This document shows positions 11,544-48,205 of a stretch of 53,799 nucleotides of DNA, piece after piece; the first letter of the stretch is position 1, and each line of letters starts with the position of its first letter. The DNA comes from a virus. Taxonomy: Duplodnaviria > Caudoviricetes. The notes under the pieces were generated by a model. That model did not search any database. It had not been told where the DNA came from and worked only from the letters and a program-made list of their open reading frames with translations. Location: IMG/VR virus record IMGVR_UViG_3300018049_000024, positions 1-53,799 of that record; one strand, given 5' to 3'. The translations under genes were made by a program, and so were the position numbers.

Positions 11544-11546
11544 ATA
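11539..11546 (+). promoter_or_regulatory. Putative late promoter TATAAATA
   Basis: Exact T4 late promoter consensus, followed by an AAGGA RBS and ATG at 11563. Confidence 0.55.
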
Positions 11547-11562
11547 AAGTAAAGGATTAAAA

Positions 11563-12540: not shown

Positions 12541-12549
12541 GAGATTATT

Positions 12550-13446: not shown

Positions 13447-13501
13447 CCACTTTTTATACTACCGTTTGTTGAATAAACTATATACATAAAAGGAGTTATG
13501 T

Positions 13502-13849
13502 ATGGACGAACGGCTAGAAAAAGCATTAGAGTTTTCCAATTTTATGGTTACTCTAAACAACCAAAAAAGAATTTTCCAAGAAACATACTATCAAGATATA
13601 CTCCATTATCATAAAGGCGCTCAGTTTTCTGTAAATCAACAGTTAATTTGTTTTGTCAAGATTATGCTAATGGAGGAGCAAGAGTCTGTAGTTTTAATTG
13701 ACGATAATGATCGGCCCGTTGAGATTGAAGATTTGCAAGCGTTCTATGATACAATTTTAAGTGTATATGTTGAAGCTAGTAATTCATATATGAGCAAATA
13801 TAATCATCTAATCAAAAATAGATCAATAGAAAAAATGGTAGAACTATGA
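13502..13849 (+). CDS. Conserved hypothetical protein, 115 aa
   Basis: Strong AAGGAG RBS; its stop overlaps the start of the first glycosyltransferase (ATGA). Confidence 0.7.
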   Translation: MDERLEKALEFSNFMVTLNNQKRIFQETYYQDILHYHKGAQFSVNQQLICFVKIMLMEEQESVVLIDDNDRPVEIEDLQAFYDTILSVYVEASNSYMSKYNHLIKNRSIEKMVEL

Positions 13850-14751
13850 AAAGTCGTGGGGCTCTTGTTGTAGCAAGAAATAACCCAAATATTGATTATT
13901 TAAAACAAGCAGCATTTCTAGCTCAAAGATTAGATCATTATTTAAATATTCCTACATCAGTTATTACTGATAGCCCAGAATGGGTAGTGGTAAATGGTTA
14001 TGCAGATATATTTGATAGAATTATACCAATCGTATGGGAAGATAAAGAATCATTACCAGGTAAAAATGTTATGGCTAGAACAAGCCCTCATTATACTTGG
14101 GAAAATGTTAGGCGATATTATGATGGTGTTTTGTCACATAAAGCATTGCCATTTAAAAATGAAGCTAGAACTTCGGCATATGACGCTACACCATATGATG
14201 AAACAATTCTAATAGACAGTGATATGTTTATTATGAATGATGATTATAAACATTGCTTTGAACAAGATCATAACTTTCTCATCTATGATAAAAGTTATGA
14301 CTTAGCAGGGTTTAGAAACCCAATGGAATTTAAATATATTAGTCAGCCTAGTATTAAGTTTTATTGGGCAACAGTTGTGTTTTTTAGAAAGTCTAAAGAA
14401 AATGAGATCTTCTTTGAGTTGTTAAAGCACATACAAGATAACTGGTATCATTATAGAGCTATTTTCCAAATACCAACAGCTTTATATCGTAATGATTTTG
14501 CATTTAGTATAGCAATTCATATTATGAACGGGTATGAAGAAGGAACATTTTCAATGCCAATGCCAGGCAAGTTATTTTTTACAGCAGATAAAGATATTCT
14601 ATGGGATGCTGACAGGGATCGTATAAATTTTTTATTGGAAAAAGAAGATTATCCAGGAGAATATACAATATGCCAATGGCGTAATGAAAATATTCATGTT
14701 ATGAATAAATTTAGTTTAGAACGATATATTGATAAGGTGTTGCATGTCTAA
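13846..14751 (+). CDS. GT-A fold glycosyltransferase-like protein (GT8-like), 301 aa
   Basis: TPYDETILIDSD (DxD motif), YWATVVFFRK, RNDFAFSIA; paralog of the next gene. Confidence 0.7.
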   Translation: MKSRGALVVARNNPNIDYLKQAAFLAQRLDHYLNIPTSVITDSPEWVVVNGYADIFDRIIPIVWEDKESLPGKNVMARTSPHYTWENVRRYYDGVLSHKALPFKNEARTSAYDATPYDETILIDSDMFIMNDDYKHCFEQDHNFLIYDKSYDLAGFRNPMEFKYISQPSIKFYWATVVFFRKSKENEIFFELLKHIQDNWYHYRAIFQIPTALYRNDFAFSIAIHIMNGYEEGTFSMPMPGKLFFTADKDILWDADRDRINFLLEKEDYPGEYTICQWRNENIHVMNKFSLERYIDKVLHV

Positions 14752-15610
14752 AGGTTTTGTAATATATGCCAGTGGAAAAGAATATGTAAAGCAGGCTTAT
14801 ATTTGTGCTATTAGTATAAAAGAAAAAGGAAACTCATATCCAGTAACAATTGTTACTTGTGATAAGATAGATGACGAGCAGAAAAAGGTATTTGATAGCG
14901 TAGTACCAATACCTTGGCACGAGCATGACAATACTCGATATCAAGTTTTGAATCGATGGAAGACTTACCACGCCTCACCTTATGATGAGACAATTGTATT
15001 AGATGCTGATACTGTAGTAACACAAAATATTGATGATTGGTGGAAGTTTTTTAGTAAGTATGAGTTATTTTTTCCATCTAGAGTTTATACATATCGAGGC
15101 GAGTTAGTTACAGGACATTATTATCGTAAAGCATTTGTAGAAAATAATTTGCCAAGTATATATACAGGAATACATTATTTTAGAAAAGATGATTTGGCGC
15201 ATGAATTTTTTAAATGGTTAGAACTTATATCTAATAATTGGGAATTGTTTTATGGGCAATACTGTAAAGATTATTATCCACCAGCACCAAGTATGGATGT
15301 ATCTACAGCAATTGCAATTAAAATTTTAGAGTTAGATCAAACAGTAACTAATAATAAAACTAATCTTATAAATTTTGTTCATATGAAAGAACGAATACAA
15401 GGTTGGGCAAATATTCGATCTACTTGGTTGAAGCACGTTGGGGTTTATTTAACAGAAGATTTAGATTTAGTGATCGGTAATCATTTTCAAAGAGGTGTTT
15501 TTCATTATGTTGATTCTGATTTTTTATCTAAAGAAATAGTTGATATATATGAAAGGAAATATTTTCCTAACAAAGTTTATGAAGAAATAGTACAAGGTAT
15601 TGTATCATGA
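14744..15610 (+). CDS. GT-A fold glycosyltransferase-like protein (GT8-like), 288 aa
   Basis: SPYDETIVLDAD (DxD motif), FVHMK; start moved to ATG 14744 (AAGGTG upstream). Confidence 0.7.
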   Translation: MSKGFVIYASGKEYVKQAYICAISIKEKGNSYPVTIVTCDKIDDEQKKVFDSVVPIPWHEHDNTRYQVLNRWKTYHASPYDETIVLDADTVVTQNIDDWWKFFSKYELFFPSRVYTYRGELVTGHYYRKAFVENNLPSIYTGIHYFRKDDLAHEFFKWLELISNNWELFYGQYCKDYYPPAPSMDVSTAIAIKILELDQTVTNNKTNLINFVHMKERIQGWANIRSTWLKHVGVYLTEDLDLVIGNHFQRGVFHYVDSDFLSKEIVDIYERKYFPNKVYEEIVQGIVS

Positions 15611-16209
15611 GTTATGTTTGTTTTAATGTTCGAGAAGGAAATATATTAGCAATAACAAATAATAAACCAGATGATTTAGATTTTGACTGTGAATGGAAAT
15701 CTATAATAGTTGATGTTGCTGAGGTTGAAGATATTCTATTAGGAAATGAAGACTACGCAAATTTTATAGTAATATATGATCGAACGTATCTTGGTTATAA
15801 ATTAAAGCGTAAAGAAATTATACCAGTTGATGAATTAAATATACAAGAAATTGTTTATAAAATTCCACAAGTTCATAAGGACTTAGATGCTGATATTAAG
15901 ATAATACAAGATATTGATACAACTTGTTGGAAAGTTTATGTTGGTAAAGATGCCGCTGGAAAACTTAGAGCAGAGTTTGCTAGTTTAAAGTTAGTTTTAC
16001 ATTTTTCAGTAACTCAATATAACAATCCTAATATATTATATCGTATATTAAAAGTAGATTTAGAGAAATTAGTAAATGAGCATCATTGTGTCCTTCATTT
16101 TGAAGAAGACTGGGAATATGATCCATATTTTCCAGTGAGTATTTTTACAGTAAGACGATTTGACAATTACACATATCAAAGAGTAGTGGATTATGGAGAA
16201 AGTATTTAA
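15607..16209 (+). CDS. Hypothetical glycosyltransferase-associated protein, 200 aa
   Basis: Coupled to GT genes on both sides; its N-terminus resembles that of the 19888 radical SAM protein. Confidence 0.65.
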   Translation: MSYVCFNVREGNILAITNNKPDDLDFDCEWKSIIVDVAEVEDILLGNEDYANFIVIYDRTYLGYKLKRKEIIPVDELNIQEIVYKIPQVHKDLDADIKIIQDIDTTCWKVYVGKDAAGKLRAEFASLKLVLHFSVTQYNNPNILYRILKVDLEKLVNEHHCVLHFEEDWEYDPYFPVSIFTVRRFDNYTYQRVVDYGESI

Positions 16210-17122
16210 GGTATTGGATTACGATATAATTTATTTAAGTTATGATGAACCAAATGCTGAACAGAATTATGCTGATTTATGTAAGAAAATACCATGGGCA
16301 AAAAGAGTTCATGGCGTAGAAGGCTCGGATGCGGCACACAAAGCCTGCGCAAATTTATCTGAGACTGATAGATTTGTTACTATAGACGGCGATAATAGAA
16401 TTAGAGAAGATTTTCTTACGCAAGAGATTAATTTTGGCGATCATTATGAGCTAGAAGATAAAGTTATTAGTTGGTGTGGGTATAATGTTATCAACGGACT
16501 TATGTATGGTAACGGCGGAGTAAAATGTTGGCCCAAAGATTTTGTGCTAAATATGCGAACACACGAAAACGCAGATCCAAATAATCCACACGCTCAAGTA
16601 GATTTTTGCTGGGATGTAGAATACATTCAAATGAATTCTTGTTTCTCTGATATTTACAATAACGCAACACCACAGCAAGCATGGCGAGCAGGATTTAGAG
16701 AAGGCGTAAAGATGGCACTAGATCAAGGAGTAAAGCCATCTTTGGAAGACTTCAAAAATAACCACTGGAAAAACCTCCACAGGCTGTTTATTTGGCTTAT
16801 GGTGGGTAACGATGTTGAGAATGGAATGTGGGCGATCTTGGGCGCTAGACAGGGCCTATACAAGACGATGTGCACCGACTGGGATTATGTTCAAGTAAGA
16901 GACTTTACTTACCTAAATAAATTATGGAATGAAGAAGTTAGTAAGCTAACCGAAACAGATGCTGAAGGAGAGATTATTTGGTTTGGCAGATTATTAGAAG
17001 AAGAATTAGATTTACCAATTGATAGAAAACCCTTAACAGAAAAGCAAAGTATATTTTTCAAAACAGTATATCAAAACCCATCTAGGATTTCAAGAGCAGT
17101 AATTGATCCGGAGATAGGATGA
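16193..17122 (+). CDS. Glycosyltransferase-like protein (GT-A/GT2-like), 309 aa
   Basis: SYDEPNA, RVHGVEG, TIDGD (DxD motif), YGNGGVK, WRAGFRE; homologous to the C-terminal domain of 25248. Confidence 0.65.
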   Translation: MEKVFKVLDYDIIYLSYDEPNAEQNYADLCKKIPWAKRVHGVEGSDAAHKACANLSETDRFVTIDGDNRIREDFLTQEINFGDHYELEDKVISWCGYNVINGLMYGNGGVKCWPKDFVLNMRTHENADPNNPHAQVDFCWDVEYIQMNSCFSDIYNNATPQQAWRAGFREGVKMALDQGVKPSLEDFKNNHWKNLHRLFIWLMVGNDVENGMWAILGARQGLYKTMCTDWDYVQVRDFTYLNKLWNEEVSKLTETDAEGEIIWFGRLLEEELDLPIDRKPLTEKQSIFFKTVYQNPSRISRAVIDPEIG

Positions 17123-18543
17123 GAGAAAATCAGCGAGGAGATCAAGTCTCGCTAGTTGAAGGACGATATGTTTCAAAATATTTTAAAGATAGTAAAGAGA
17201 CACTAACGGATCTCAATGCCGTTAGTCCGTCATTCTGCCTAGCAAAATGGTTCAATGTATCAATTCATATCCCAACAGGGCAGACTCACAGTTGTTATCA
17301 TCCCCAGTCTCACGCTATACCATTAGACGAGTTAGCGGCTAATCCAGATGCTATACACAACACTAGCCATAAAATACAGCAGCGGCATAAGATGTTGGAA
17401 GGAGAGCGTCCAAAAGAGTGTAGTTACTGCTGGGATATTGAAGATCAAGGCAATATAAGTGACAGAGCTTACCGCAGCAATGATGTTCAAGAGGAAGGAC
17501 TAATACAAAAAGCATTAGACAACATTCAGCACCCAACTCCACGCTATATGGAGGTAAATTTTAATCAGGCTTGTAACTTTAAGTGTGCATATTGCTCACC
17601 GCATTTATCTACTGAATGGCTAAAGGAGGTACAAGAGTATGGCGGTTACAAATTATCATCAGGAACGCATAATGATAAAGGTTGGGTAGATAGATTAGGG
17701 ATTGACAATAGCCCAGACAATCCATACGTTCAATCGTTTTGGGAATGGTGGCCCACTGTATATAAGGATCTAAAAACATTTAGAATGACAGGCGGTGAGC
17801 CACTAATGGATAAGAATACTTTCAGAGTATTTGATTATGTAAAACAAAATCCAAATCCAGAACTTAATTTGTGTATTACAAGTAATTGTTGCCCACCAGG
17901 CAATCAATGGAATAAGTTTATGGTTGCTATAAAAGAGATAGCAAATGAAGAAACGCTCAATCACTTTCAACTATATTGTAGCTTAGATACTTGGGGAGAG
18001 CAAGCAGAATATATCCGTAACGGTTTAGATTATGAGATATTAAGAAAAAATATTGTACAATTTTTAACAGAGTGCAAAAATCATAGCTTAGGATTTATAA
18101 TTACATCAAATTTGCTCAGTCTTCCTAATTGGTGTAAGTTTATAGAGACTATTCATGAGCTACGATGTAAAGTAAATAAAGAGAGACAACTAATATGGTT
18201 TGATACTCCAATGCTACATCATCCTAATTGGCTAAGTATGAGATTAGCAACTCCAGAGATGTTGAATAATTTACAACTTAGTATAGATTTTATGGAAAAT
18301 AATAAAGAGACTTCCAATAATAGATTTAAAGGTTTTAAGGATTTTGAGATTGATAGAGTAAGACGATTATATGATTGGGCTAAACATCCTTTTAGTGCTG
18401 AAGAAGATGAGAAACATAAGATAGACTTTTATTTATTTTTTACTGAACATGATAAAAGGCGCAATACAAATTTTACAAAAACATTTCCAACTATGATAAA
18501 ATTTATGAACCAGTGTAAGGAGTATTATGAGCAAAGGAGATGA
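17119..18543 (+). CDS. Radical SAM protein with N-terminal twitch-like Cys domain, 474 aa
   Basis: CNFKCAYC, TGGEP; N-terminal FCLAKW..HSCYHP..CSYCW. Confidence 0.9.
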   Translation: MRENQRGDQVSLVEGRYVSKYFKDSKETLTDLNAVSPSFCLAKWFNVSIHIPTGQTHSCYHPQSHAIPLDELAANPDAIHNTSHKIQQRHKMLEGERPKECSYCWDIEDQGNISDRAYRSNDVQEEGLIQKALDNIQHPTPRYMEVNFNQACNFKCAYCSPHLSTEWLKEVQEYGGYKLSSGTHNDKGWVDRLGIDNSPDNPYVQSFWEWWPTVYKDLKTFRMTGGEPLMDKNTFRVFDYVKQNPNPELNLCITSNCCPPGNQWNKFMVAIKEIANEETLNHFQLYCSLDTWGEQAEYIRNGLDYEILRKNIVQFLTECKNHSLGFIITSNLLSLPNWCKFIETIHELRCKVNKERQLIWFDTPMLHHPNWLSMRLATPEMLNNLQLSIDFMENNKETSNNRFKGFKDFEIDRVRRLYDWAKHPFSAEEDEKHKIDFYLFFTEHDKRRNTNFTKTFPTMIKFMNQCKEYYEQRR

Positions 18544-19891
18544 TCACGTTCGAGAAGCAAGAGATGTTGCAAAGAGACTGAATGCAGTAGGTCCAGGGTT
18601 TTGTGCTATGAAGTGGCTACATCAAACTTTATATTTACATACAGGTGATAATCATAGTTGTTATCATCCACGTCCCCATCATATTCCTTTACATACTCTA
18701 AAAGATAACCCGTCTGCTTTGCATAATACTAACTGGAAAAAAGAACAACGAAAAACAATGTTAGAGGGTGGACGCCCTGCTGAGTGTTATTATTGTTGGA
18801 ATATTGAAGATTTAGAAGGAGATCATTTATCAGATAGAATGTTCCATAGCTCTAGCTCGTTTGCTGAGCCAATGATTGAAAAATTAGCAGAGCTTCCTTG
18901 GGATGCTAATATAAATCCAAGATATTTAGAAGTATCGTTTGGCAATGGTTGTAATTATAGATGTGGTTACTGCTGTCCACAAGCAAGCACAATGTGGATG
19001 GAAGAAATTGAGACATACGGCAATTATGATTTGACATATAATCAATATGGAACAGAGTTTTTGCGAAGCGGAAACTACTATGGACCAAATGAAGATAATC
19101 CATATATTGAGGCGTTTTGGAAATGGTGGCCCAGTTTGAAAAATGATTTATGGACACTTCGTATTACTGGCGGGGAGCCACTAATGAATCCTGGAGCTAT
19201 GAAGTTTTTTGATTTATTAGAAAATGAACCATCGCCTAACTTAGAGATTAGCTTAAATAGTAATTTAGGTGTTACTACAAAAAAGATTGATAGGTTGTTT
19301 GATCGGATACGAAGTTTATTAGATCAAAATAAAATTAAGAAATTTAGACTCTTTACAAGTATTGATACATGGGGACCACAAGCTGAGTATATGCGTACTG
19401 GAATGAAGTTAGATCATTGGGAGCGCAATCTTAGAAAAGCAATGGAGATGGAATTTGAAGTAAGTCTTATGTGTACATTTAATGTTTTATGTGTTACAAA
19501 CTATAAATCGTTTTTATATAAAATGAAAGAATGGAGAGCTGATTATGGCAAAGAGGCTATTTCATTTGATGTTCCATATCTTAAAGAACCACCTCATTGG
19601 ATGATTAATATTTTGCCCGAAAGTTTTATGGAATATATGCATGATACTTTAGAGTTTATTAATAGTGACTCTGATTTTTTACCAGCAGAGTATGAGAGAT
19701 TTAAACGAGTCACAAATTATATGAAAACTAATCCAGTTGAGCATAGTAAAATTTTACAAGGACAAAGAGATTTTTATTCATTTTTTACAGAAAATGATAA
19801 ACGATTAGGAACTGATTTGTTAGCTACATTTCCTGAGTATAAAGATTTTTATTATCATTGTAAAGATGTTTATGAGAACTACGAAAAATGA
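18527..19891 (+). CDS. Radical SAM protein with N-terminal twitch-like Cys domain, 454 aa
   Basis: CNYRCGYC, TGGEP; FCAMKW..HSCYHP..CYYCW; close paralog of 17119. Confidence 0.9.
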   Translation: MSKGDDHVREARDVAKRLNAVGPGFCAMKWLHQTLYLHTGDNHSCYHPRPHHIPLHTLKDNPSALHNTNWKKEQRKTMLEGGRPAECYYCWNIEDLEGDHLSDRMFHSSSSFAEPMIEKLAELPWDANINPRYLEVSFGNGCNYRCGYCCPQASTMWMEEIETYGNYDLTYNQYGTEFLRSGNYYGPNEDNPYIEAFWKWWPSLKNDLWTLRITGGEPLMNPGAMKFFDLLENEPSPNLEISLNSNLGVTTKKIDRLFDRIRSLLDQNKIKKFRLFTSIDTWGPQAEYMRTGMKLDHWERNLRKAMEMEFEVSLMCTFNVLCVTNYKSFLYKMKEWRADYGKEAISFDVPYLKEPPHWMINILPESFMEYMHDTLEFINSDSDFLPAEYERFKRVTNYMKTNPVEHSKILQGQRDFYSFFTENDKRLGTDLLATFPEYKDFYYHCKDVYENYEK

Positions 19892-21450
19892 GTTATGTAT
19901 ATTATAATAATGACGGCTCAATAATAGCAGCATCAAATGATTTGTTAACAGATTTTGCAAATGCCAACATTTTAGAAATTGAGTTTGAAAAAATAGAAAA
20001 ATTGTTAGTTGGAGAGCATTTACCATCAGAGTATAATGTTTATAAAAATAAACTAGTCTATAAAAAAGAGAAAGTAGAATCAACATGGAAGTTAAAGGCT
20101 ATTACATTTTTTTATAAATATTTGAGAAGAGTTGAATCATATTATAATACCTATCATGACATACTTAAATATAAAGTAGCATTAATGACAACGACACCAT
20201 ATAGTCCCCCATCTAAATCTCTTTATCATCGTCCCCCATCTAAACCTATTCATCCAACAAGATGTGTTAATCCATATCTAAATTTAACAATACATCCAAG
20301 TGGTAAAGTTAAAGTATGTTGTATGAGTCATAAGTGGCTCACTACTGATTCTGGAGAGACTACTTTAAATAATGCTAGTTTGTTAGATTTTTGGAATTCA
20401 AAAGACAGAAAACGATTTATAAAACAATTAGAGAGTAAAATACAAGTTCCTGAATGTAAGGCTTGTTGGACTGAAGAAGCAGCAGGAAAAGATAGTAAAA
20501 GATTGCGAGATAATGCAGCATACAAACACATACCACACGATGAACAGTCTTTTCCAATAGTATTAGATTTAGGTATGGGAAACTTATGTAATTTAAAATG
20601 TCGTATTTGTTCAGCAGTTCATAGTACACCTATGTTAGCTGAAGAAGCTGAAATGTTGCAGCCAAACGATGTTGTTGGTTATATGAATCAAGATAAGTTC
20701 CGTATTACTCGTGAAAGTTTTGATCCTAATAATTCGTATGTTTGGGAAGATATAAAACCATTTCTAAAAAATGCTATGAGGTTTGATTTCTCAGGCGGAG
20801 AGCCTTTTTATATTGATTCGCATTGGCGTATAATAGATCATTGTGTAGAGAATGATTATGCGAAAGAACAAATAGTTCATTACAATACAAATGGATCAAT
20901 ATTTCCACAAAAGCATATTCACAAGTTAGATAAATTCAAATTAGTTGATATACAAATAAGTTCAGATGGTATAGGTAAACAATTTGAATATTTGAGAAGT
21001 GGTGTATCATTTGAATTGTCAGAACAAAATATAGATAAGTTTTTAGAAAGAAAAAAAGAAAGTAAAACTAATTGGTTATTAGGTGCTTGTCTAAGTGTAA
21101 GTGCTTTCAATGTTTTTGATTTTTTTGAAACTTATGAGCATTATACAGCAAAAGGTTTAGGGGTATATGTTAATTTTGTTCATGATAATGGTGGAATACG
21201 AGTGCTACCAACAGAAGTTAAAAATCATTTGATAGATAAACTTCAAAGGACTGAAAGTAAGTATAACAAAGCAGATTGGCGTAAAGTAAAAAACTCAATA
21301 TCAAGTATATTGAATAATACTGAGTTCGTAGAAGAAGATTGGCTTTGGTTTTGTAATAGATTTCAAAGTTTAGATAAAGTGAGAGAGGAAAGTTTTGAAC
21401 AAACTTTTCCAGAATACTATAAGTTATTAAAGGAATATATAAATGTTTAA
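19888..21450 (+). CDS. Twitch-domain radical SAM protein with extra N-terminal domain, 520 aa
   Basis: CVNPY..VCC..CKACW, CNLKCRIC, SGGEP, YNTNG. Confidence 0.9.
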   Translation: MSYVYYNNDGSIIAASNDLLTDFANANILEIEFEKIEKLLVGEHLPSEYNVYKNKLVYKKEKVESTWKLKAITFFYKYLRRVESYYNTYHDILKYKVALMTTTPYSPPSKSLYHRPPSKPIHPTRCVNPYLNLTIHPSGKVKVCCMSHKWLTTDSGETTLNNASLLDFWNSKDRKRFIKQLESKIQVPECKACWTEEAAGKDSKRLRDNAAYKHIPHDEQSFPIVLDLGMGNLCNLKCRICSAVHSTPMLAEEAEMLQPNDVVGYMNQDKFRITRESFDPNNSYVWEDIKPFLKNAMRFDFSGGEPFYIDSHWRIIDHCVENDYAKEQIVHYNTNGSIFPQKHIHKLDKFKLVDIQISSDGIGKQFEYLRSGVSFELSEQNIDKFLERKKESKTNWLLGACLSVSAFNVFDFFETYEHYTAKGLGVYVNFVHDNGGIRVLPTEVKNHLIDKLQRTESKYNKADWRKVKNSISSILNNTEFVEEDWLWFCNRFQSLDKVREESFEQTFPEYYKLLKEYINV

Positions 21451-24547: not shown

Positions 24548-24552
24548 AATGG

Positions 24553-25197: not shown

Positions 25198-25215
25198 TAG
25201 GTGCCTTTCTTCTAA

Positions 25216-25236
25216 ATAAATACTACTATTATTTAT
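25216..25236. promoter_or_regulatory. Pair of oppositely oriented putative late promoters (ATAAATA on each strand)
   Basis: ATAAATA at 25216-25222 (+) and 25230-25236 (-) in the 50-bp gap between divergent genes. Confidence 0.45.
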
Positions 25237-25247
25237 TAAACCTTTTT

Positions 25248-30842: not shown

Positions 30843-30855
30843 TATTAAGATAAAT

Positions 30856-36808: not shown

Positions 36809-37515
36809 AAATAGAACCATTTCTTAGGGCTATGCATAAAAATGAATGTAACCAAACAAAAGATTTTCTATATCCTCGTCAAAAAGAGGAACTTGCTAAA
36901 CATAGAAAATTCTTATCAAAATATAAAGATGGATTATATATTAAAAATCCTGTAACATACACCATAAACCATTTAGGATATCGAACTAGAGACGATATAC
37001 CTACCACTGATTATATATTAGCAGTGGGCTGTAGTCATACATTTGGGATAGGATTACATGAAGAACATAGATTTACTAATTTATTAGAAGATTTTTATAA
37101 GGTCCCAGTGCTGAATGTTTCTATACCAGGTGGATCACCAAATAGCGTTCGAGACAATATAATCCAATTATTATCAAGTGATACTTGTTTACCAAAATTA
37201 GTTATACTACAATGGCCCAGTGATACTAGGCTTACTTTTGGACTTCAGAATCTTGGGCCATGGGCTAGAAGAGATCTTTATTATGCTAGGTTTGTAGCTT
37301 TGAATAAAGATAATATATCTTTATATAGTAAGATAGCAAAAGAGCAAACACCTAGATTACTAACAAAGCATGGTATTCCGTTTATTTCTTTTGATATGAA
37401 GGAGAGAGAAAAACATTTTTTTCTTGATGTAGCTAATGATAGAGATCATTCTGGTATAGAAGGGAACAAGCTAGTTTTTGAGCATTTAAAAGAACAAATT
37501 GATGCAATATTGTAA
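36805..37515 (+). CDS. SGNH/GDSL hydrolase-like protein, 236 aa
   Basis: INHLGYR, VGCSHTFG, PGGS, DRDH (DxxH). Confidence 0.65.
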   Translation: MKIEPFLRAMHKNECNQTKDFLYPRQKEELAKHRKFLSKYKDGLYIKNPVTYTINHLGYRTRDDIPTTDYILAVGCSHTFGIGLHEEHRFTNLLEDFYKVPVLNVSIPGGSPNSVRDNIIQLLSSDTCLPKLVILQWPSDTRLTFGLQNLGPWARRDLYYARFVALNKDNISLYSKIAKEQTPRLLTKHGIPFISFDMKEREKHFFLDVANDRDHSGIEGNKLVFEHLKEQIDAIL

Positions 37516-38026
37516 GAACGATTGTCTTAATGAGCATATAAAGCAACGGAGAGTGTATCATGGTGGAGATCATATCTATAAAACATGGATCAAACCAAAA
37601 ATAACTTATGAGTATTTAAGAAATATGGTGGAGTTGATTGAAAAAGTAGATCCGTCATATGTATTAGATTATGGTATTAATAATGGTAAATGTTGGGCTA
37701 AGTTTCGTATAGTAGAAGGAGAGCTTAGATATAATCCCTTCAAATGGAATGAAGAATCAGTTAGAAACGTTATTAATTTTATTACAAATCATTATAAAAC
37801 TTTTTACCCAATATATCACGGTGATCCTTGTTTAGGAAATATTTTAGTATCAGATGACACTTTTCATTTTATAGATTATGACGACATATGTGTAAATGAA
37901 AATATAAATCAAGTGTTTAAACTTATACAGAATAAATGTTTAGAATCATTTTCAATGGGTGCATTTGCAGGAAAATATAATAACTTGATAAAGTCAGTAA
38001 TAAAAGAGAATAAAAAACTAATATGA
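37502..38026 (+). CDS. Small kinase-like phosphotransferase (APH/choline kinase fold), 174 aa
   Basis: HGDPCLGNILV (Brenner motif HGDxxxxN) and FIDYD. Confidence 0.6.
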   Translation: MQYCKNDCLNEHIKQRRVYHGGDHIYKTWIKPKITYEYLRNMVELIEKVDPSYVLDYGINNGKCWAKFRIVEGELRYNPFKWNEESVRNVINFITNHYKTFYPIYHGDPCLGNILVSDDTFHFIDYDDICVNENINQVFKLIQNKCLESFSMGAFAGKYNNLIKSVIKENKKLI

Positions 38027-38964
38027 AATATGAAGATATGACTTTTGAAGTCTTAGGCACTCATAGACAGCGTCCAATGTATTTGCGTAAATTTACAACC
38101 TTTAGGAGTGAGTTAGATATGGCTACTTATCCTAGAGATCCACATGCATATACAGAAATATTTTTAGATACTATAGACAAATGGATAGCATCTCACAAAT
38201 ATATCAAGTATAATGGATTAGAATCATTTTCTCGACGAGATGTGATTTTAGGTACTACACACCAGCTAGATGAGTTACATCTTCTTCACGGGGAAAATAT
38301 TGTAGTCTATAAAGGCGAATATAAATATCATAGAAGATTAACAAACCATAGTGTAAGGCAGATCAATACATACACTCAGCTTAGAAAGGGAGATGTATTT
38401 ATAGTATCTTATCCAAGTTGTATTACAACAGGCAAAATAGATGAGTTTGATGAGCTTTTAGATTATTGTGCTAAATTGTATATACCAGTTCATATAGATG
38501 GAGCTTGGTTTGGGCAATGTAGAAATATTGAGATTTCTGTAGATCATCCCGCGATTCAAAGTGTAAGTGTAAGTTTAAGCAAAGCATTAGGAATGGGAAA
38601 TCAACGAATAGGTATTAGATATACAAAAGATCGAGTAAATGGACCTATTGCTATTATGAATGATTTCGGTTATGTGAATGCTAGTGATATGTGGGTAGGA
38701 GTAGAAGCAACAACTTATTTTGGTGCTGATTATTGGTGGGCAAATTATGGCGAGTTATATACTAAAGTTTGTAAAGATTTTGATTTGCTAGAGTCCGATA
38801 GTATTCATGCAGCATGGAAAGACAATATTTTGTATGGAATTCGAACCCCGCTACGAATGTTAATAGAAGGTATATACGATGAAAGAGGTACTGATAAAGG
38901 ATTATCAGATATTGAACGAAAAGATAGATCAAATGAAGTTTGGAAATCAATGTCTAGACATTGA
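38023..38964 (+). CDS. PLP-dependent enzyme (fold type I, aminotransferase-like), 313 aa
   Basis: HIDGAW (PLP-binding Asp), SLSKALG (Schiff-base Lys), RIG. Confidence 0.7.
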   Translation: MKYEDMTFEVLGTHRQRPMYLRKFTTFRSELDMATYPRDPHAYTEIFLDTIDKWIASHKYIKYNGLESFSRRDVILGTTHQLDELHLLHGENIVVYKGEYKYHRRLTNHSVRQINTYTQLRKGDVFIVSYPSCITTGKIDEFDELLDYCAKLYIPVHIDGAWFGQCRNIEISVDHPAIQSVSVSLSKALGMGNQRIGIRYTKDRVNGPIAIMNDFGYVNASDMWVGVEATTYFGADYWWANYGELYTKVCKDFDLLESDSIHAAWKDNILYGIRTPLRMLIEGIYDERGTDKGLSDIERKDRSNEVWKSMSRH

Positions 38965-39625
38965 TTTAGATAAATGGATTGAAAAATTTTATAAAATATA
39001 TAAAGATAAATCTGATGATTTTAAAATATCTGGCGCATTTAAAGGAAACACGCATTATAAATTTACATTAGACGATAGAATATCTTTTGCTAAGGATATT
39101 CCATTTATTCGTGATAGTAAGTTGCAATGGTTTTTTGAATTTTTCTATGCTACAGAACCAGTAGGTTTGCATAATGATTATTTACTAACCAACATGTCCA
39201 ATGGTGATATTATAAGGGATAAGATTGGCATACTAATACCATTAGAGTGGAATTCAAAACAACCATATACACTTTTCTTTGATAAATTTACAGAAGATTC
39301 AAAATTAATTTTTCGAAAAGGCGAAATGCGCCATCATAAAACAAATGAAGTATATTCGTATAGACACTCTGATGATATTGATAAAGAAATTGATTTTTAT
39401 CAACCAATAGGATCTAAAAATAGGCGACAATATATAGATTTAAAAATAGTTGATATTTTTACATATAAGAAAAATTATAGTTATGTTTTTGATACGCGGC
39501 AATGGCATTCTGGGTCTTGGTTTATAGATAACTTAACTGGTGAACCAGAAGAAAAAAAGTATAAATTGATTATTTCTGGTTTTGGCTCAGAAATACTAAA
39601 CCCTAAAAACAGGAATAAATGTTAA
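38933..39625 (+). CDS. 2OG-Fe(II) oxygenase-like protein, about 230 aa
   Basis: LHND, ILIPL, FDTRQWH; paralog of 41064. Start uncertain (38879 or 38933). Confidence 0.55.
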   Translation: MKFGNQCLDIDLDKWIEKFYKIYKDKSDDFKISGAFKGNTHYKFTLDDRISFAKDIPFIRDSKLQWFFEFFYATEPVGLHNDYLLTNMSNGDIIRDKIGILIPLEWNSKQPYTLFFDKFTEDSKLIFRKGEMRHHKTNEVYSYRHSDDIDKEIDFYQPIGSKNRRQYIDLKIVDIFTYKKNYSYVFDTRQWHSGSWFIDNLTGEPEEKKYKLIISGFGSEILNPKNRNKC

Positions 39626-40305
39626 CAAAAGATTTTCAGATTAATGATGCTTATAAAAAGATAGGAATCAAATTATCAGGTGGTGCAGATAGTTCTATAA
39701 TTTATTATATGTTATGCGAGCATACTAAAGATAAAGATGTAGATATATATGTTCTATCAATTGGCACGCCTGTGAAACCATGGTATCCTGACGGAGCAAA
39801 ACGTGTAATTGATATTGTTGGAAAGATGACAGGAAAATATCCAAAAGAACATTTGATAAATATGGTCCCGCATTCTGAGTATGTTATAGGACAGGACAAA
39901 TTAGCTGAAAAATTAAGAAATGAATATGGAGTAGATGTCATTTATTCAGGTTTAACTATGAATGTTGAAAACAACAAGTTTCAGAACGTATTGATGTCTA
40001 ATAAAGAACTTTGGAACTTAAATGAAACTGACATTAAGAATAGGCTAGCTACTAGAGATAAATCAAGAGATTATAAAGTAAATAAGAAACAGATACCTTG
40101 GAGACCATTCGGCCACGGTGATAAAATGACTACTTACGAAGCCTATAAAATTAATAATATGATAGATGAGTTATATCCATATACTTATTCCTGTGAAAGA
40201 ATGGATGTACCAATCGAAGAATATAAAGGAATAGAAAATATGGTGCATTGTAATCGATGTTATTTTTGTTTTGAGCGGTGGTATGCGTTTGGGAGGCTGT
40301 TGTAG
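39619..40305 (+). CDS. QueC-like (7-cyano-7-deazaguanine synthase-like) PP-loop ATPase, 228 aa
   Basis: LSGGADS PP-loop; C-terminal TYSC..HCNRCYFCFER zinc motif. Confidence 0.65.
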   Translation: MLTKDFQINDAYKKIGIKLSGGADSSIIYYMLCEHTKDKDVDIYVLSIGTPVKPWYPDGAKRVIDIVGKMTGKYPKEHLINMVPHSEYVIGQDKLAEKLRNEYGVDVIYSGLTMNVENNKFQNVLMSNKELWNLNETDIKNRLATRDKSRDYKVNKKQIPWRPFGHGDKMTTYEAYKINNMIDELYPYTYSCERMDVPIEEYKGIENMVHCNRCYFCFERWYAFGRLL

Positions 40306-41061
40306 ATGGATTATAAAAAATATGATAAAGATGGAAATGAGTTAAATCTAATACCTTTGGCAAAAAGATCAAAGCAAGCAAATTTTTATCAAAAATGGTT
40401 AGATGATCCAAACTCAGTAATGCCAACAGATGAGGATATTAAGTGTGAGCTACAATTGCAAGCACTTAGTTATTGGGAACCTTTATCAATCAAAATCAAA
40501 CGTAAAGTTCAAGAAGAATTAACAGCGTTAGACGATATGTGGCAACCATATTTAAGACGAGAAGGAATAATGAATGATAGGGAAGGTATTCCTTTGTTTT
40601 CTATTCCAGAATTAGATATGAAAAGCGGCATAAGTATGCCTGATGCTACAAAAGCAATGGGTAGGCCTTTATCAGAGTTAGAGTTTTGCCATCCAACAGA
40701 AGCATATCATGCTCTACCTAGTCTCCATACTTTGTTAGATTATTGGCAACCATTAGGCAGAACATTTTTAGTAAAATTAAATGCCGGTGGGTATTTTCCT
40801 CCGCATAAAGACACTCCATTGTTAACAAGAAATACTTTTAGAGTAGTGGCATTTTTATCTGATCAAAATTCACTAGATCAGTTTGAATGGGAAATGGATC
40901 GCAGGCAAGTACCAACAAAGGAATTTACTGCTTATTATTGCGATACAAGGCAAACACATAGAACTCATTCTTGGGCACATAATTGTATTCATTTAATAAT
41001 GAACATTCCTAAAACTTGGGAAAATGTAATGAAGGTAATGAGTGTGACTGATAAGTATTGA
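40306..41061 (+). CDS. 2OG-Fe(II) oxygenase, aspartyl/asparaginyl beta-hydroxylase-like, 251 aa
   Basis: KLNAGGYFPPHKD, DTRQTH, IHLIMN. Confidence 0.65.
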   Translation: MDYKKYDKDGNELNLIPLAKRSKQANFYQKWLDDPNSVMPTDEDIKCELQLQALSYWEPLSIKIKRKVQEELTALDDMWQPYLRREGIMNDREGIPLFSIPELDMKSGISMPDATKAMGRPLSELEFCHPTEAYHALPSLHTLLDYWQPLGRTFLVKLNAGGYFPPHKDTPLLTRNTFRVVAFLSDQNSLDQFEWEMDRRQVPTKEFTAYYCDTRQTHRTHSWAHNCIHLIMNIPKTWENVMKVMSVTDKY

Positions 41062-41063
41062 TT

Positions 41064-41768
41064 ATGAGATCTCGACAACAAATAACCAAATTGAAAAAGG
41101 CACAAAGTCCGCCAGTCTCAATAACTGATATATCAATAGAGGTTGATAAGTATTTAAATTTTTATTATGAAAATAAAAAGCATTGGGTTATAAAAAATAC
41201 AGGCCCTACTTTTTTACAGATAGAAAAAGTAGATAAAAACAATGAGCTATTACAGCCTATAGTTAATAAACTTAAAGATAGGTTTGGATCATTCAAAATA
41301 AGAACTTCTCATATTTTTGATGTTACATCTCCTCATGTTATTCATAATGATGACACTCCAGAATACCCAAATAGTTACAAAGCATTTACTATACCTTTAA
41401 AAATATATGGAAAGTCAAACGATCTTAAATTAGTTTTATTTGATCAATATTATTATCATGGTCCTGCGAAATTTTTTAACGGTGATATCCCCAATAAGCA
41501 TGCAGTCTATTATAATAAACCATTATGTAACTATAAGTATGTTTCGTATAAAAGTAACCTAAAAATTAGTGATGAGATATACAAAAAATATTTAACTCAC
41601 TGTAAAAAAGAATGGTTGGATAATTTATCTATAAATACTTTGTTAGATTGGAAACTAGGAAATATTTTATGCTTTGATAGTTTACAATTACATTGTAGTT
41701 CAAATTTTAGAAATAATAATGTATCTCAAAAGATTGGACTATCAATTTTTACTGTAAAGGATGATTGA
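41064..41768 (+). CDS. 2OG-Fe(II) oxygenase-like protein, 234 aa
   Basis: IHND, FTIPL, FDSLQLHCS, KIGLSIF. Confidence 0.55.
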   Translation: MRSRQQITKLKKAQSPPVSITDISIEVDKYLNFYYENKKHWVIKNTGPTFLQIEKVDKNNELLQPIVNKLKDRFGSFKIRTSHIFDVTSPHVIHNDDTPEYPNSYKAFTIPLKIYGKSNDLKLVLFDQYYYHGPAKFFNGDIPNKHAVYYNKPLCNYKYVSYKSNLKISDEIYKKYLTHCKKEWLDNLSINTLLDWKLGNILCFDSLQLHCSSNFRNNNVSQKIGLSIFTVKDD

Positions 41769-42487
41769 TGGAATGGTTAGAGCTAATAGAAGAAAGACAT
41801 ACAACTTTTGCATGGGATGAAGAGAGAATCCCTAAAAAAGAGCTTATTATAGAAGCGTTACAAGAAGTACACACTCACATACCAAGTAAAAACTTAATGT
41901 TTCCGTATCAAGTAAGATTATATAGACACAATGATGAGGCTAAACGAAAAAGACTTATGGAGATATGTCTTAGAAATGGATCGTTATCTACAGAAGATGA
42001 TCCTGGAAATCCACAAGTTCTTGCTCCGTGGATACTTTTATTTAATTCAAGATATTGTTCTGATTTAGAAGGTAGATTTGATACAAAAAGTCCTAGGGCA
42101 AAATTAGATGGTTTAGGTTCTGGAAAAACTCGTACACCGGGGCATCAAACAACAAAGCAAATTCAAACAGAAAATATTGAGATTGGAATTTTTTCAGCAT
42201 TTATAATGTTAGCCTTGGCAAATAGAGGAATACAAAGTGGCATGTGCCAAAATTTATGTAATGATTATCCTGCAGTTGAAGAAATGTTTCCTATATCTCA
42301 CGATGAAAGAGCGTTAGATCTTCGTTTTTTAATAGGTGTAGGATATGGTAAAGATAGATATGTACATTATGACTATTTTGATCCTCGGGTAGATATAGTG
42401 AAAAAAATACCATATCCTCCTGGTATTGTAGATAAGGTATATGGTAGACCTTCGTTCAACAATATTGTAATAGTGGAAGATGAATAA
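41768..42487 (+). CDS. Nitroreductase-family protein, 239 aa
   Basis: RHTTFAW, IPSKNLMFPY, NPQVLAP, EIGIF..LALANRG, IGVGY; paralog of 30306. Confidence 0.6.
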   Translation: MEWLELIEERHTTFAWDEERIPKKELIIEALQEVHTHIPSKNLMFPYQVRLYRHNDEAKRKRLMEICLRNGSLSTEDDPGNPQVLAPWILLFNSRYCSDLEGRFDTKSPRAKLDGLGSGKTRTPGHQTTKQIQTENIEIGIFSAFIMLALANRGIQSGMCQNLCNDYPAVEEMFPISHDERALDLRFLIGVGYGKDRYVHYDYFDPRVDIVKKIPYPPGIVDKVYGRPSFNNIVIVEDE

Positions 42488-43589
42488 AGATTTAAAATGG
42501 AGTCAATACGACTTTACTAAAATTCCTTTTGATGATATAGTCTCATTAGGACAGCGAACATTATTATATAGAGATTTATTTACAGTGTCGTGGTTGCTAG
42601 GACGATATTGTAACTACAAGTGTTCCTATTGTTGGCCCTATGCCCATACTACAAAAAAGGATCATCGTCCTACAGAGCTATGCCTAAAAACAATTGATGA
42701 AATTAAAAGACAAGCAAGGATTAATGGATTTAATTCATTTCATTTTTCTCTGTCAGGCGGTGAGCCTACATTTCACCCTGGCTACTTAGATATCCTAAAA
42801 TATCTAGCAGATGATGTGCCTAACACAAACTACACATCAATTCATATGACTAGTAACTGCTCCCGCCCCTTAGACTGGTTTAGAACGTATGTAGAGTTCG
42901 CTAAGCCGTTTCATAGAGCATCTATAACTGCTAGCCTACATACAGAACATGTCGCTACTACGGGCGATCTAAGCGACTTTGCGGACAAGCTAGAATTCTG
43001 CCAATCATATGATGTGCAAGTAACAGTCAATATGGTGATGGTGCCTGAATGGTTTGACAAGGACTGGGAGAACGCCCTCTATTTACACAACAGAGGGATC
43101 AACGTTACGCTAAAGCCACAGTCCGACCCCACAGCATCCCGTGTGGTAGATGGCTATACAGAGGAACAATTACACACCTTACACAACGGAATGCCGCAAA
43201 GGGCTTATACAGAGACAAAGCGAGAATGGAAAGATAGGCCTAAAGCAACTTTTGAAGTTCCACAAGGACAAAAAGATGATTCATCGGTACCAGGACATTT
43301 TCAAGTAGAGTTTACAGACTCAACTGGTAAAAAATGGTATATGGATCAGGCAGAAAGATTTAATGCGTTTAATTTTAATAATTTTGAAGGATGGATATGT
43401 AACTCAGGGTATCAAGGAATTATTATTAGAGAACCAGATGGTAATATAAAACGAAGTTATTCTTGTCATGATGAACCGTTGGGGAATATAGAAACAGGAT
43501 TCAAATTGTTTAACAAACCAACGATTTGTACAACTAAATCCTGTGTTTCTAGTGCAGACTCTAAATTGCCAAAATATAAATTAATGTAA
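42480..43589 (+). CDS. Radical SAM protein with C-terminal Cys cluster, 369 aa
   Basis: CNYKCSYC, SGGEPT; C-terminal CNSG..YSC..CTTKSC; paralog of 35367. Confidence 0.9.
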   Translation: MNKDLKWSQYDFTKIPFDDIVSLGQRTLLYRDLFTVSWLLGRYCNYKCSYCWPYAHTTKKDHRPTELCLKTIDEIKRQARINGFNSFHFSLSGGEPTFHPGYLDILKYLADDVPNTNYTSIHMTSNCSRPLDWFRTYVEFAKPFHRASITASLHTEHVATTGDLSDFADKLEFCQSYDVQVTVNMVMVPEWFDKDWENALYLHNRGINVTLKPQSDPTASRVVDGYTEEQLHTLHNGMPQRAYTETKREWKDRPKATFEVPQGQKDDSSVPGHFQVEFTDSTGKKWYMDQAERFNAFNFNNFEGWICNSGYQGIIIREPDGNIKRSYSCHDEPLGNIETGFKLFNKPTICTTKSCVSSADSKLPKYKLM

Positions 43590-48164: not shown

Positions 48165-48205
48165 AGTATCTCCTGTGTGTTGTTGTTATTTACTGTATAT
48201 TTCTA

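Follow-up and report, generated by a model that had tools for sequence, protein, structure and literature searches.

The window analyzed here is an entire 53.8-kb viral contig (IMG/VR record IMGVR_UViG_3300018049_000024; 53,799 nucleotides), and it carries, at positions 13502-43589, a 30-kb island of glycosyltransferases, radical S-adenosylmethionine (SAM) enzymes, and other small enzymes lying amid genes for tail proteins. Comparison with relatives shows that the island is a fixed-position, variable-content part of the baseplate/fiber host-recognition module. Its conserved core consists of two GT-A glycosyltransferases, two GT-A glycosyltransferases of a novel family, a 17119-type radical SAM enzyme with an N-terminal twitch-like domain (N-twitch), a class I methyltransferase, a SPASM radical SAM enzyme, and a 32645-type radical SAM enzyme (genes are named by their lower coordinate in the window); around this core lies a changing set of radical SAM paralogs and small tailoring enzymes, and all of the proteins are soluble. 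We favor, tentatively and with slightly more doubt than confidence, a reading in which the island encodes a cytoplasmic pathway, itself linked to host recognition, for assembling an oligosaccharide and editing it by radical chemistry.

The island holds 33 open reading frames (ORFs), of which 32 lie on the plus strand and one (24553-25197) on the minus strand. As an earlier note on this DNA had stated, the genes are nearly gap-free: the single gap of at least 20 nt, 50 nt long, falls at the divergent 25197/25248 junction, and ten of 33 junctions (the 32 internal ones and that with the adjoining fiber gene) are 4-nt overlaps. All eight sites at which the same note had seen ATGA coupling (13846, 15607, 17119, 19888, 27426, 32645, 36805, and 38023) do read ATGA. 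The G+C content of the island, 0.28-0.37, is below that of most of its flanks. No transmembrane segments were found in the island proteins, none of which has two or more transmembrane-like windows; the two single windows above threshold belong to 27426, which is predicted to fold as a soluble methyltransferase, and to 30306. Within 13502-43589 there is no free ORF of 20-79 amino acids (at least half of it outside called genes), and the smallest island ORF encodes 115 amino acids.

Virion genes adjoin the island on both sides. The upstream anchor is a large virion/baseplate-like structural protein with an open 5' end (1-5148, plus strand), which matches PHROG virion structural and baseplate wedge families (E values of 8e-23 to 1e-5) and has homologs at the same position in three related contigs (G002, G004, and G005). 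It is followed by a 200-amino-acid baseplate/structural protein of the Atu_ph07-/Rak2-type jumbo myoviruses (5169-5771, plus; phrog_11259, E 3e-68), which is 54% identical to its counterparts in Sinorhizobium phage Phosso and Agrobacterium phage Atu_ph07 and matches 93 phage records, all 25 among the matches listed being genomes of 337-490 kb. Three tail-fiber paralogs with a common N-terminal attachment region come next (5773-7905, 7910-9958, and 9999-11543, all plus; paralogy E 1e-25 to 3e-33; repeat family D1), with matches to tail fiber and collar PHROGs and, in 5773-7905, to Collar PF07484 (E 4.5e-16). Directly before the island, both here and in G002, G004, and G005, lie two paralogous genes (11563-12540 and 12550-13446, plus; 35% identity, E 2e-40) whose products have no Pfam, PHROG, or NCBIfam match and are candidates for distal fiber parts or acceptors. 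At the other end, a fiber-like protein with an Mtd_N domain (43581-45281, minus; PF18454, E 9.3e-10) is encoded convergently and overlaps the island end by 9 nt; a larger relative, G001, has a homolog at the same position, and a second Mtd_N protein of G001 carries a pectate-lyase-like domain. The setting first described for the cluster, between tail genes and a further fiber gene, is borne out by these Collar, baseplate/fiber PHROG, and Mtd_N matches. Neither a template/variable repeat pair of a diversity-generating retroelement, near the Mtd_N gene or elsewhere in the window, nor a reverse transcriptase in the window was found. The flanking proteins of the window match jumbo phage genomes of 284-490 kb, and, judged from such protein matches, the source phage, an uncultured coastal one, is a jumbo myovirus of the Atu_ph07/Rak2/PA5oct type.

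The island opens with the 115-amino-acid protein (13502-13849, plus), which has homologs at the island start in G001 (44% identity), G002, G004, and G005 and in the cultured Ralstonia jumbo phage RsoM2USA (ORF354; 29%, E 5e-15). Two GT-A glycosyltransferases follow (13846-14751 and 14729-15610, plus). The second matches PF11051 (26.5 bits against a cut-off of 22; E 5e-6), the first is its weak paralog (23% identity over 205 residues, E 5.6e-6), and DxD-type motifs (DSD, DAD) are visible by eye. The third glycosyltransferase, 16193 (16193-17122, plus), belongs to a large family without a Pfam model and is assigned to the GT-A fold by its predicted structure. An AlphaFold2 (AF2) model built from 70 relatives has a predicted local distance difference test score (pLDDT) of 94.8; over residues 2-179 it aligns with many GT-A enzymes at tied VIA Z scores of 8-10 (root-mean-square deviation ~3 Å over ~138 residues), and its top Foldseek matches (E 4e-4 to 1e-3) include ThuS/SunS, the PBCV-1 capsid glycosyltransferase (probability 1.00, E 6e-4), and ppGalNAcT. 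In the 70-sequence alignment, D65 of its DxD-type motif is nearly invariant and D67 invariant. The 16193 family comprises at least 8000 homolog clusters (1273 representatives at 50% clustering), and among 21 longer members scanned, ten carry a GT1/GT28-like (GT-B) domain and four carry Sel1 repeats. Run against PDB sequences, neither the 16193-family profile nor the 27426-family profile had a match below E 0.3, and a BFVD fold search returned two close uncharacterized phage proteins and otherwise generic GT-A matches.

The fourth glycosyltransferase is the C-terminal domain (approximately residues 326-549) of the core gene 25248 (25248-26897, plus), which is 34% identical to 16193 (E 1.9e-29) and matches PF00535 at 21.3 bits, below the cut-off. 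Homologs of 25248 at 49-70% identity occur in all 15 related IMG/VR loci examined; these loci were chosen through orthologs of 32645, on which all such core counts are conditional. The N-terminal 325 residues of the protein (25248-26225) resemble, by eye, about three degenerate repeats of the N-terminal half of its own GT-A domain, seen in the DNA as repeat D5. The four glycosyltransferases of the earlier note, three of them at the island start, thus stand as GT-A-type on the strength of PF11051, paralogy, and predicted fold. Of the two methyltransferases it listed, one stands and one does not: 27426 (27426-28130, plus), a core gene, has a predicted class I SAM-dependent methyltransferase fold (AF2 pLDDT 88.9; Foldseek probability 1.00 to many methyltransferases, the top match being NodS at E 1.7e-7), while 36251 has no methyltransferase match. 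Homologs of 27426 were found in 15 of 15 related loci, in RsoM2USA (ORF347, 31%), and in eight of 75 cellular genome loci. The four GT-A genes and the methyltransferase gene lie behind the fiber genes, and none of their products has a transmembrane segment.

Radical SAM enzymes are the most numerous class in the island. Twelve of the 33 proteins match PF04055 at E ≤ 0.01, nine of them reaching the 29.5-bit cut-off; the three below it (17119, 19888, and 29188) score 243-309 bits on NF033640 (N_Twi_rSAM, twitch domain-containing radical SAM protein), for which the curated cut-off is 170 bits, and the CxxxCxxC motif is present in all twelve, which confirms the number first given. Eight of these enzymes are paralogs with an N-terminal twitch-like domain and 20-34% pairwise identity, all encoded on the plus strand: 17119-18543, 18527-19891, and 19888-21450 (NF033640 309, 310, and 265 bits), 22665-23894 (269 bits; PF04055 45.4 bits), 29188-30318 (243 bits), and 31557-32648, 32645-34030, and 34031-35380 (166, 420, and 353 bits). 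Seven of the eight thus score 243-420 bits on NF033640, and 31557, at 166.1, falls just under the cut-off. Four conserved N-terminal cysteines and the three cluster cysteines occur in all eight, and the invariant positions of their alignment are C7, C25, C90, C93, C146, C150, C153, and a GGE motif. Positions 8-78 of the N-twitch profile align to residues 184-257 of BtrN, which form its twitch domain (E ~1e-3).

These paralogs are not recent copies of one another. In a family tree of 183 members, from which the duplicate loci L003, L009, L010, L012, and L015, identical sequences, and sequences shorter than 330 amino acids were left out, the eight window paralogs fall into separate deep clades and are therefore old and specialized; viral and cellular sequences are interleaved, with 24 viral-only and 32 cellular-only maximal clades under midpoint rooting. 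The most conserved core gene is 32645, whose orthologs in the 15 IMG/VR loci are 61-84% identical and which has 2212 database matches, the best 120 listed being 67-87% identical and lying on contigs of up to 457 kb.

The four remaining radical SAM enzymes, also on the plus strand, form two pairs. One consists of 21443-22696, with a C-terminal SPASM domain (PF04055 32.4 bits, PF13186 25.2 bits), and its paralog 28131-29195 (30% identity, E 7e-55; PF04055 33.6 bits), a core gene with a Cys-rich C-terminal region and homologs at 53-72% identity in 15 of 15 related loci. The other is of a different type and consists of 35364-36260 (weakly STM4011-like; PF04055 38.8 bits; NF038073 E 1e-13, below cut-off) and its paralog 42480-43589 (26% identity; PF04055 55.4 bits), the last island gene, with orthologs 77-78% identical in G001 and in locus L004. 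The sugar decarboxylase BlsE is among the weak PDB and NCBIfam matches of the island radical SAM proteins.

One N-twitch enzyme, 19888, has an extra N-terminal extension of ~120 amino acids (19888-20250), to which the first ~70 residues of 15607 (15607-16209, plus), a 200-amino-acid protein with no family match and a homolog 27% identical in G005, show some similarity (BLASTP 30% over 73 residues, E 0.023 in a single comparison); the two may share a docking or recognition domain. This similarity is one of several points that speak for direct modification of protein or peptide, in which SPASM and twitch enzymes would crosslink, epimerize, or methylate the fibers or the products of 13502 and 15607, and sugars would be one step of many. 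Peptide maturases are typically radical SAM enzymes of the SPASM and twitch kinds, and the island proteins have many weak NCBIfam maturase matches; the top Foldseek matches of 16193, ThuS and SunS, are peptide S-glycosyltransferases; the island also encodes nitroreductase-like proteins, and standalone bacterial arrays of N-twitch genes occur without nearby glycan genes. We nevertheless regard this explanation as improbable. The maturase matches are all far below their cut-offs, the island has no room for a precursor-peptide gene, since it contains no free ORF of 20-79 amino acids, Pfam and NCBIfam scans detected no RRE or PqqD-like domain, YcaO, protease, or exporter, and in the one portion of the island that RsoM2USA shares, four transferases predominate.

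The other island genes encode small proteins that are mostly of enzyme-like but weakly matched types. Those with sub-threshold matches are, on the plus strand, a sulfotransferase-like P-loop protein (26887-27429; PF17784, E 2e-4, 21.7 bits against a cut-off of 22.8; PF13469, E 0.031), two paralogous nitroreductase-like proteins (30306-30842, PF00881 E 0.011; 41765-42487, PF00881 E 0.0078, 16.8 bits against a cut-off of 23.5; 25% identity, E 5e-13), a small kinase-like protein (37499-38026; NF008738, E 3.7e-5 over 59 residues; PF01636 APH, E 0.015), and a PP-loop ATPase-like protein with a QueC-like Cys-rich C-terminus (39619-40305; phrog_1550, E 6.5e-5; PF00733, E 0.018; PF06508, E 0.038; SGGxDS motif by eye). 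A further protein (38023-38964, plus) resembles pyridoxal phosphate (PLP)-dependent enzymes of fold type I, such as aminotransferases (PF00282, E 0.009): in the ESM Atlas it has a feature score of 0.99 to viral clusters with PF00155 on 17-24% of members and a TM-score of 0.80 to a PF00155 cluster, whereas its homolog search (326 matches) showed no aminotransferase-type Pfam domain among the best 120 listed, one longer protein there carrying methyltransferase families only. The nitroreductases, PLP enzyme, kinase, P-loop protein, and QueC-like enzyme named in the earlier note are therefore retained here as likenesses, at sub-threshold or similarity level (E ~0.01 for the nitroreductases).

Other assignments in that note did not find a family match. 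Its four 2-oxoglutarate (2OG) oxygenases correspond to a 219-amino-acid protein (23888-24547, plus) with no match in Pfam, NCBIfam, or PHROGs and no homolog in the fetched loci, a 251-amino-acid protein (40306-41061, plus) without a family match, for which hhalign gave 8% probability to a 2OG-FeII_Oxy_3 protein, and two DUF6445-like proteins, 38879-39625 and 41058-41768 (plus). The latter has ESM Atlas feature scores of 0.94-0.95 to viral clusters, one with PF20043 on 88% of members, and 38879 is homologous to it (hhalign probability 93%, E 2.9e-7 to the 41058 family). Shallow hhalign profiles failed to link any of the four to the Pfam-annotated 2OG oxygenases of G001. Family models likewise gave no SGNH match for the two proposed SGNH enzymes, 30733 and 36805, and no match for the proposed short-chain dehydrogenase/reductase, 24553. 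The first of these is a 277-amino-acid protein (30733-31566, plus) with no family match and homologs at 28% identity in L002 and L003, the true start of which probably lies downstream of a 110-nt overlap; the second is one of two adjacent genes (36251-36808 and 36805-37515, plus) with no family match beyond DUF6473 at E 0.046 and sporadic homologs in related loci; the third (24553-25197), the only minus-strand gene of the island, encodes a 214-amino-acid protein with an N-terminal glycine-rich motif seen by eye and no homolog in the fetched loci.

Much of this repertoire, namely BtrN/BlsE/NeoN-type radical SAM enzymes, PLP enzymes, kinases, methyltransferases, and transferases, consists of classes that also make up aminoglycoside and nucleoside antibiotic clusters. 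The island could on that account be imagined to make a soluble small molecule of aminoglycoside or nucleoside type during infection, acting on competitors or on host physiology, and a cyanophage trio of radical SAM, aminotransferase, and amidinotransferase genes has been read as 'antibiotic synthesis genes' in the pertinent passage of PMC12801897. We consider this very improbable in view of a core of four transferases and a fixed place inside the tail module across distant phages; moreover, the island has no exporter or self-resistance gene.

The fixed place of the island is seen most clearly in its relatives. In all three relatives with upstream DNA (G002, G004, and G005), the order is the large protein, the 200-amino-acid protein, three fibers, the 11563-like gene, and the island, and in G001 (179.6 kb; 50% complete by CheckV), a 42-kb island has the same genes at both ends. 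Together with RsoM2USA, described below, these contigs uphold the suggestion that the block of glycosyltransferases and radical SAM enzymes follows the same tail genes. The content, by comparison, is fluid: homologs of 25248, 27426, and 28131 occur in 15 of 15 loci, whereas most other island genes are sporadic, many with 0-2 homologs in the fetched loci. The G001 island contains 22 PF04055 matches, with one more elsewhere in the contig, and 13 NF033640 members above cut-off; five further related contigs have 13, 19, 25, 17, and 11 PF04055 matches (G005 and G006 share content and are not independent). No NF033640 member above cut-off was found in 14 control genomes, and the radical SAM density of the island is far beyond chance.

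Such turnover also raises the question of whether the island is one pathway at all. Perhaps it is a plastic hot-spot in the structural region, with a small glycan-module core and a remainder of genes with separate functions; accessory genes are sporadic among relatives, PF04055 counts range from 11 to 25, the island has its own low G+C content, and hyperplastic regions of mixed genes have been described for T4-like marine phages in the corresponding section of PMC7029224. This we hold to be decidedly improbable, because the genes are packed without gaps, translationally coupled, and unidirectional, nearly all of them encode enzymes of tailoring classes, and these families turn up in each other's company both in phages and in certain bacteria.

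Outside its island, G001 encodes functions that provide context for this biochemistry. It encodes iron-sulfur (Fe-S) assembly proteins (an A-type Fe-S carrier and NifU), a ferredoxin, an FNR-like reductase, and several sugar-nucleotide enzymes, a set that, as context only, fits a heavy demand for iron-sulfur clusters and sugars. Cu/Zn superoxide dismutase, peroxiredoxin, and rubrerythrin are encoded as well. In addition, G001 encodes heme oxygenase, ferredoxin-dependent bilin reductase, an alternative/plastoquinol-type oxidase, PstS, Hsp20, PhoH, and SHMT, and this large auxiliary set may point to a phototrophic or oligotrophic host and to measures that protect enzymes sensitive to oxygen. Replication genes, and a ThyA gene beside that for DHFR, are found elsewhere in the contig, the replication module lying on the other strand.

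The G001 complement also bears on DNA hypermodification, in which sugars and other groups would be placed on phage bases as a defense against restriction. Kinase, PLP, radical SAM, PP-loop/QueC-like, and transferase classes all occur in thymidine and 7-deazaguanine hypermodification pathways, and this overlap of enzyme classes, together with a GTP cyclohydrolase I and a PTPS/QueD-like protein encoded elsewhere in G001, is what can be said for it. The remaining observations make it extremely improbable: TGT/DpdA (PF01702) was found in none of four related contigs, all of which are fragments, the G001 thymidylate synthase homolog has the score of an ordinary ThyA and is encoded next to DHFR, the island is linked to the structural rather than the replication module, and 12-25 radical SAM enzymes far exceed any known DNA pathway. 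Neither DpdA/TGT nor a hydroxymethylase entry enzyme was found in the window.

A minimal version of the system exists in a cultured phage. Among 50,697 phage records, a single one, that of RsoM2USA (MG752970), contains a 16193-type transferase, and seven of the eight genes ORF354-347 of this phage match the island in the same order at 29-45% identity: ORF354 corresponds to 13502, as noted above, ORF353 to 13846 (32%), ORF352 to 14729 (36%), ORF350 to 16193 (45%), ORF349 to 17119 (38%), ORF348 to the C-terminal domain of 25248 (44%), and ORF347 to 27426, with one unmatched gene between ORF352 and ORF350. The block lies directly downstream, on the same strand, of the baseplate, sheath, structural, and fiber-like ORFs 364-355. 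In contrast to the window island with its twelve radical SAM genes, RsoM2USA has one radical SAM gene and no accessory cassettes. In the available text of the RsoM2USA paper, the genes of the block are annotated as hypothetical and left undiscussed, 'radical' occurs 0 times, and 'glycosyl' occurs once, for another ORF.

Homologs are also found in cellular genomes. A search restricted to one genome per species yielded 75 loci with a 17119-type enzyme (32-49% identity), of which 62 are labeled Bdellovibrionota, including complete chromosomes; 16193-like genes are present in five of the 75. Among 15 bacterial loci that were annotated, three (L041, L055, and L061) are glycan-type loci that encode a flavoprotein, GT2 enzymes, of which some are anchored in the membrane, and proteins with 8-9 transmembrane segments, to which L041 adds a DegT aminotransferase and an NAD sugar epimerase/dehydratase. 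In these same three loci the 17119-type radical SAM gene lies beside a 16193-like gene, and L055 and L061 also have a 27426-like gene. A fourth locus, L100, has one GT2 gene, and L072, L083, and L029 offer weaker carbohydrate or envelope hints. Tandem arrays of six to eight N-twitch genes among housekeeping genes, with no transferase nearby, were seen at L094 (1104-13100) and L035 (7896-16844). Four further loci, L032 (a 153-kb contig in a metagenome-assembled genome labeled Neomarinimicrobiota), L051, L037, and L090, show the phage island start in phage order, with 13502-, 13846-, 14729-, and 16193-like genes at 43-69% identity, and are probably mis-binned phage DNA.

The glycan-type loci invite a comparison with envelope biology. 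In a host-envelope reading, the soluble transferases would act at the inner membrane face on a lipid-linked O-chain or another receptor glycan, host machinery would export the product, and the receptor would be hidden by the edited glycan, which would prevent superinfection or keep progeny from sticking to debris. This is the published interpretation of the analogous pelagimyophage 'host recognition cluster', as given in the relevant part of PMC7029224; homologs in L041, L055, and L061 do lie beside membrane-anchored GT2 and 8-9-transmembrane-segment proteins that are typical of envelope glycan loci, and linkage to receptor-binding genes would suit receptor masking as well. Yet the island lacks a flippase, a polymerase, an initiating phosphoglycosyl transferase, an ABC transporter, and indeed any membrane protein, and an outlay of 30 to >60 kb seems large for masking in a lytic phage. 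In addition, the island is co-directional and nearly gap-free with structural genes, whereas exclusion functions would usually be expected to be early. We judge host-envelope remodeling unlikely, though it is the foremost rival of the favored reading.

The cytoplasmic oligosaccharide pathway that we favor is suggested by the conserved core, the fixed place in two very distant jumbo phages, the presence of soluble enzymes only, and the cassette-like turnover. A sugar substrate is plausible because other proteins carry the novel GT-A domain joined to GT-B domains, because certain Bdellovibrionota loci encode it alongside GT2, DegT, and sugar epimerase enzymes, and because the twitch region aligns to that of BtrN. 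In such a pathway, the transferases would assemble an oligosaccharide from host or phage sugar nucleotides, and the twitch and SPASM radical SAM enzymes would abstract hydrogen from unactivated sugar carbons, which would permit epimerization, oxidation, deoxygenation, decarboxylation, or C-C/C-methyl chemistry of the kind that BtrN, HygY, NeoN, and BlsE perform with sugar substrates. Enzymes resembling those for methyl, sulfo, phospho, amino, and amido transfer would then finish the product. The phage's own fiber or baseplate proteins seem to be the likeliest acceptor, an assignment that we make with more doubt than confidence; fibers are preferred because of the gene linkage and the precedent of viral capsid glycosylation. 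If they are the acceptor, cassette swapping would alter the surface chemistry of the recognition apparatus. The virion glycan-tailoring system envisaged in the earlier note therefore keeps its foundation, a co-directional block of soluble transferases and tailoring enzymes linked to the tail module, and loses several of its enzyme-class counts.

A number of observations weigh against the oligosaccharide pathway or its attachment to the virion. Against the PDB, the radical SAM core gave unspecific matches, led by tetraether lipid synthase, SkfB, and viperin and also including BlsE and MoaA, and our literature searches on radical SAM and twitch enzymes yielded no NF033640 member with a known reaction, so the sugar chemistry is an analogy and not evidence. 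The protein-glycosylating structural neighbors of 16193 are weak (TM-score ~0.3) and tied with many other GT-A enzymes, and the nitroreductase-like proteins and SPASM domains fit peptide chemistry too. Among the 15 annotated bacterial loci, a Pfam glycosyltransferase was found in only four (L041, L055, L061, and L100), and eight (L035, L036, L094, L091, L098, L084, L038, and L096) have 3-8 N-twitch genes among unrelated genes with no glycan gene nearby. These standalone arrays, and the failure to find an assayed NF033640 member, weigh most heavily against the sugar reading. The module is missing from all cultured phages searched other than RsoM2USA and is thus not needed to build such a virion. 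As regards expression, a sigma-70-like promoter scan of 11000-30999 gave 97 sites against 104.9 expected, terminator-like sites in the same interval numbered 2 against 6.5 expected, and the late-promoter-like word CTAAATA occurred 16 times against 20.3 expected; since these counts are at or below chance, they allow no claim on expression timing. One metatranscriptome contained 23 small contigs over 24500-44499, covering 16 of 30 bins, which indicates presence only and may reflect carried-over DNA; no meaning attaches to the uncovered parts.

Perhaps the arrays of up to 25 anciently diverged N-twitch enzymes constitute a chemical diversity generator for host recognition. Cassette swapping would then rewrite the stereochemistry and oxidation pattern of a glycan, or of the fiber protein itself, on the receptor-binding apparatus, as an enzyme-encoded, post-assembly counterpart of sequence diversification, with a toolkit common to the predatory, prey-surface-recognizing Bdellovibrionota. 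We offer this as a speculation that is unlikely to hold.

Beyond the Mtd_N fiber, the downstream neighbors of the island are a DUF2201 protein and a MoxR ATPase. The DUF2201 metallopeptidase/VWA protein (46863-48164, minus; E 3e-46) and the MoxR-type AAA ATPase (50985-52064, minus), the latter 51% identical to its PA5oct counterpart, are neighbors in G001 too and, by similarity, form a MoxR-VWA pair in jumbo phages. The genes beyond the island all lie on the minus strand except one for a GNAT acetyltransferase (49471-49914, plus; E 2e-10), of which G001 has a weak homolog where its island ends. An identical 22-nt AT-rich word occurs in intergenic DNA at 48193-48214 and 52110-52131, upstream on the minus strand of 46863-48164 and 50985-52064 (0 expected by chance), and a 44-nt repeat (52379-52422 and 52706-52749) spans the starts of two small genes; neither element occurs within the island, and both may serve the minus-strand, non-structural class of genes as promoters or leaders. 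At 52806-52878, flanked by two small genes on the minus strand, five exact copies of the 13-nt unit TTATGTACGGACC stand in two tandem groups (0.01 copies expected by chance) and may form a regulator-binding or origin-like array. The window contains no tRNA genes, and megablast of 20 kb against the 50,697 phage records gave no match. Near-identical window DNA was detected in 19 sequencing runs from salt marsh, estuary, and seawater (2018-2024), ten of which may be source samples.

Abundant phages devote 30 to >60 kb to 11-25 oxygen-sensitive iron-sulfur enzymes of this kind, and the occurrence of the same toolkit in Bdellovibrionota may point to a broader part in recognizing cell surfaces. Knowing the identity of the product would assign a chemistry to the large radical SAM family NF033640 and to a transferase family without a Pfam model, would account for one of the large variable regions in the genomes of marine phages, and would put to the test the idea that phages adjust host recognition chemically instead of through sequence change. 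In literature searches that combined radical SAM with phage, jumbo phage, twitch, glycosyltransferase, or tail fiber, no paper turned up that analyzes these arrays, the chemistry of NF033640, or the 16193-type transferase.

Virus-encoded glycosylation of virions has precedents in PBCV-1 A064R, in mycobacteriophage capsid and tail-tube glycosylation, and in the fibril glycans of mimivirus. Like the window, these systems have soluble viral GT-A enzymes and a methyltransferase next to or among structural genes, but we know of no radical SAM enzymes in them, let alone 12-25. Radical SAM/SPASM systems for ribosomally synthesized and post-translationally modified peptides have an adjacent precursor peptide gene, and lipid-linked O-antigen and capsule loci have an initiating transferase, a flippase or ABC transporter, and a polymerase; the window island has none of these.

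Among characterized enzymes, BtrN, HygY, BlsE, and the epimerase NeoN resemble those of the island in having an auxiliary 4Fe-4S twitch domain beside the radical SAM core. Twitch radical SAM enzymes act on sugars, and NeoN and HygY do so on assembled pseudo-oligosaccharides, according to the relevant section of PMC10991966. In BtrN-type sugar enzymes, however, the twitch is C-terminal rather than N-terminal, and the sequence similarity is remote. The window island, by itself, forms an operon array of eight deeply diverged NF033640 paralogs, and G001 has 13. A T4-like marine genome of 183 kb with 12 radical SAM genes was placed in the context of Fe-S metabolism in the pertinent part of Nishimura et al. 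(2017; PMC5332604).

A close described counterpart is the 'host recognition cluster' of pelagimyophages and cyanomyophages, which contains tail fibers, GT8-type transferases, and radical SAM cassettes (Zaragoza-Solas et al., 2020; PMC7029224). The portion of that study concerned with the cluster reads the transferases as modifiers of the host O-chain and contains no family-level radical SAM analysis. As described there, the cluster lies between VrlC and gp14 of T4-like phages of 132-164 kb, whereas the window island belongs to a jumbo myovirus and ends at an Mtd_N gene. In both, nonetheless, a large hypervariable island sits in the structural region and unites fibers, many glycosyltransferases, and cassettes of radical SAM genes that are gained and lost among closely related phages.

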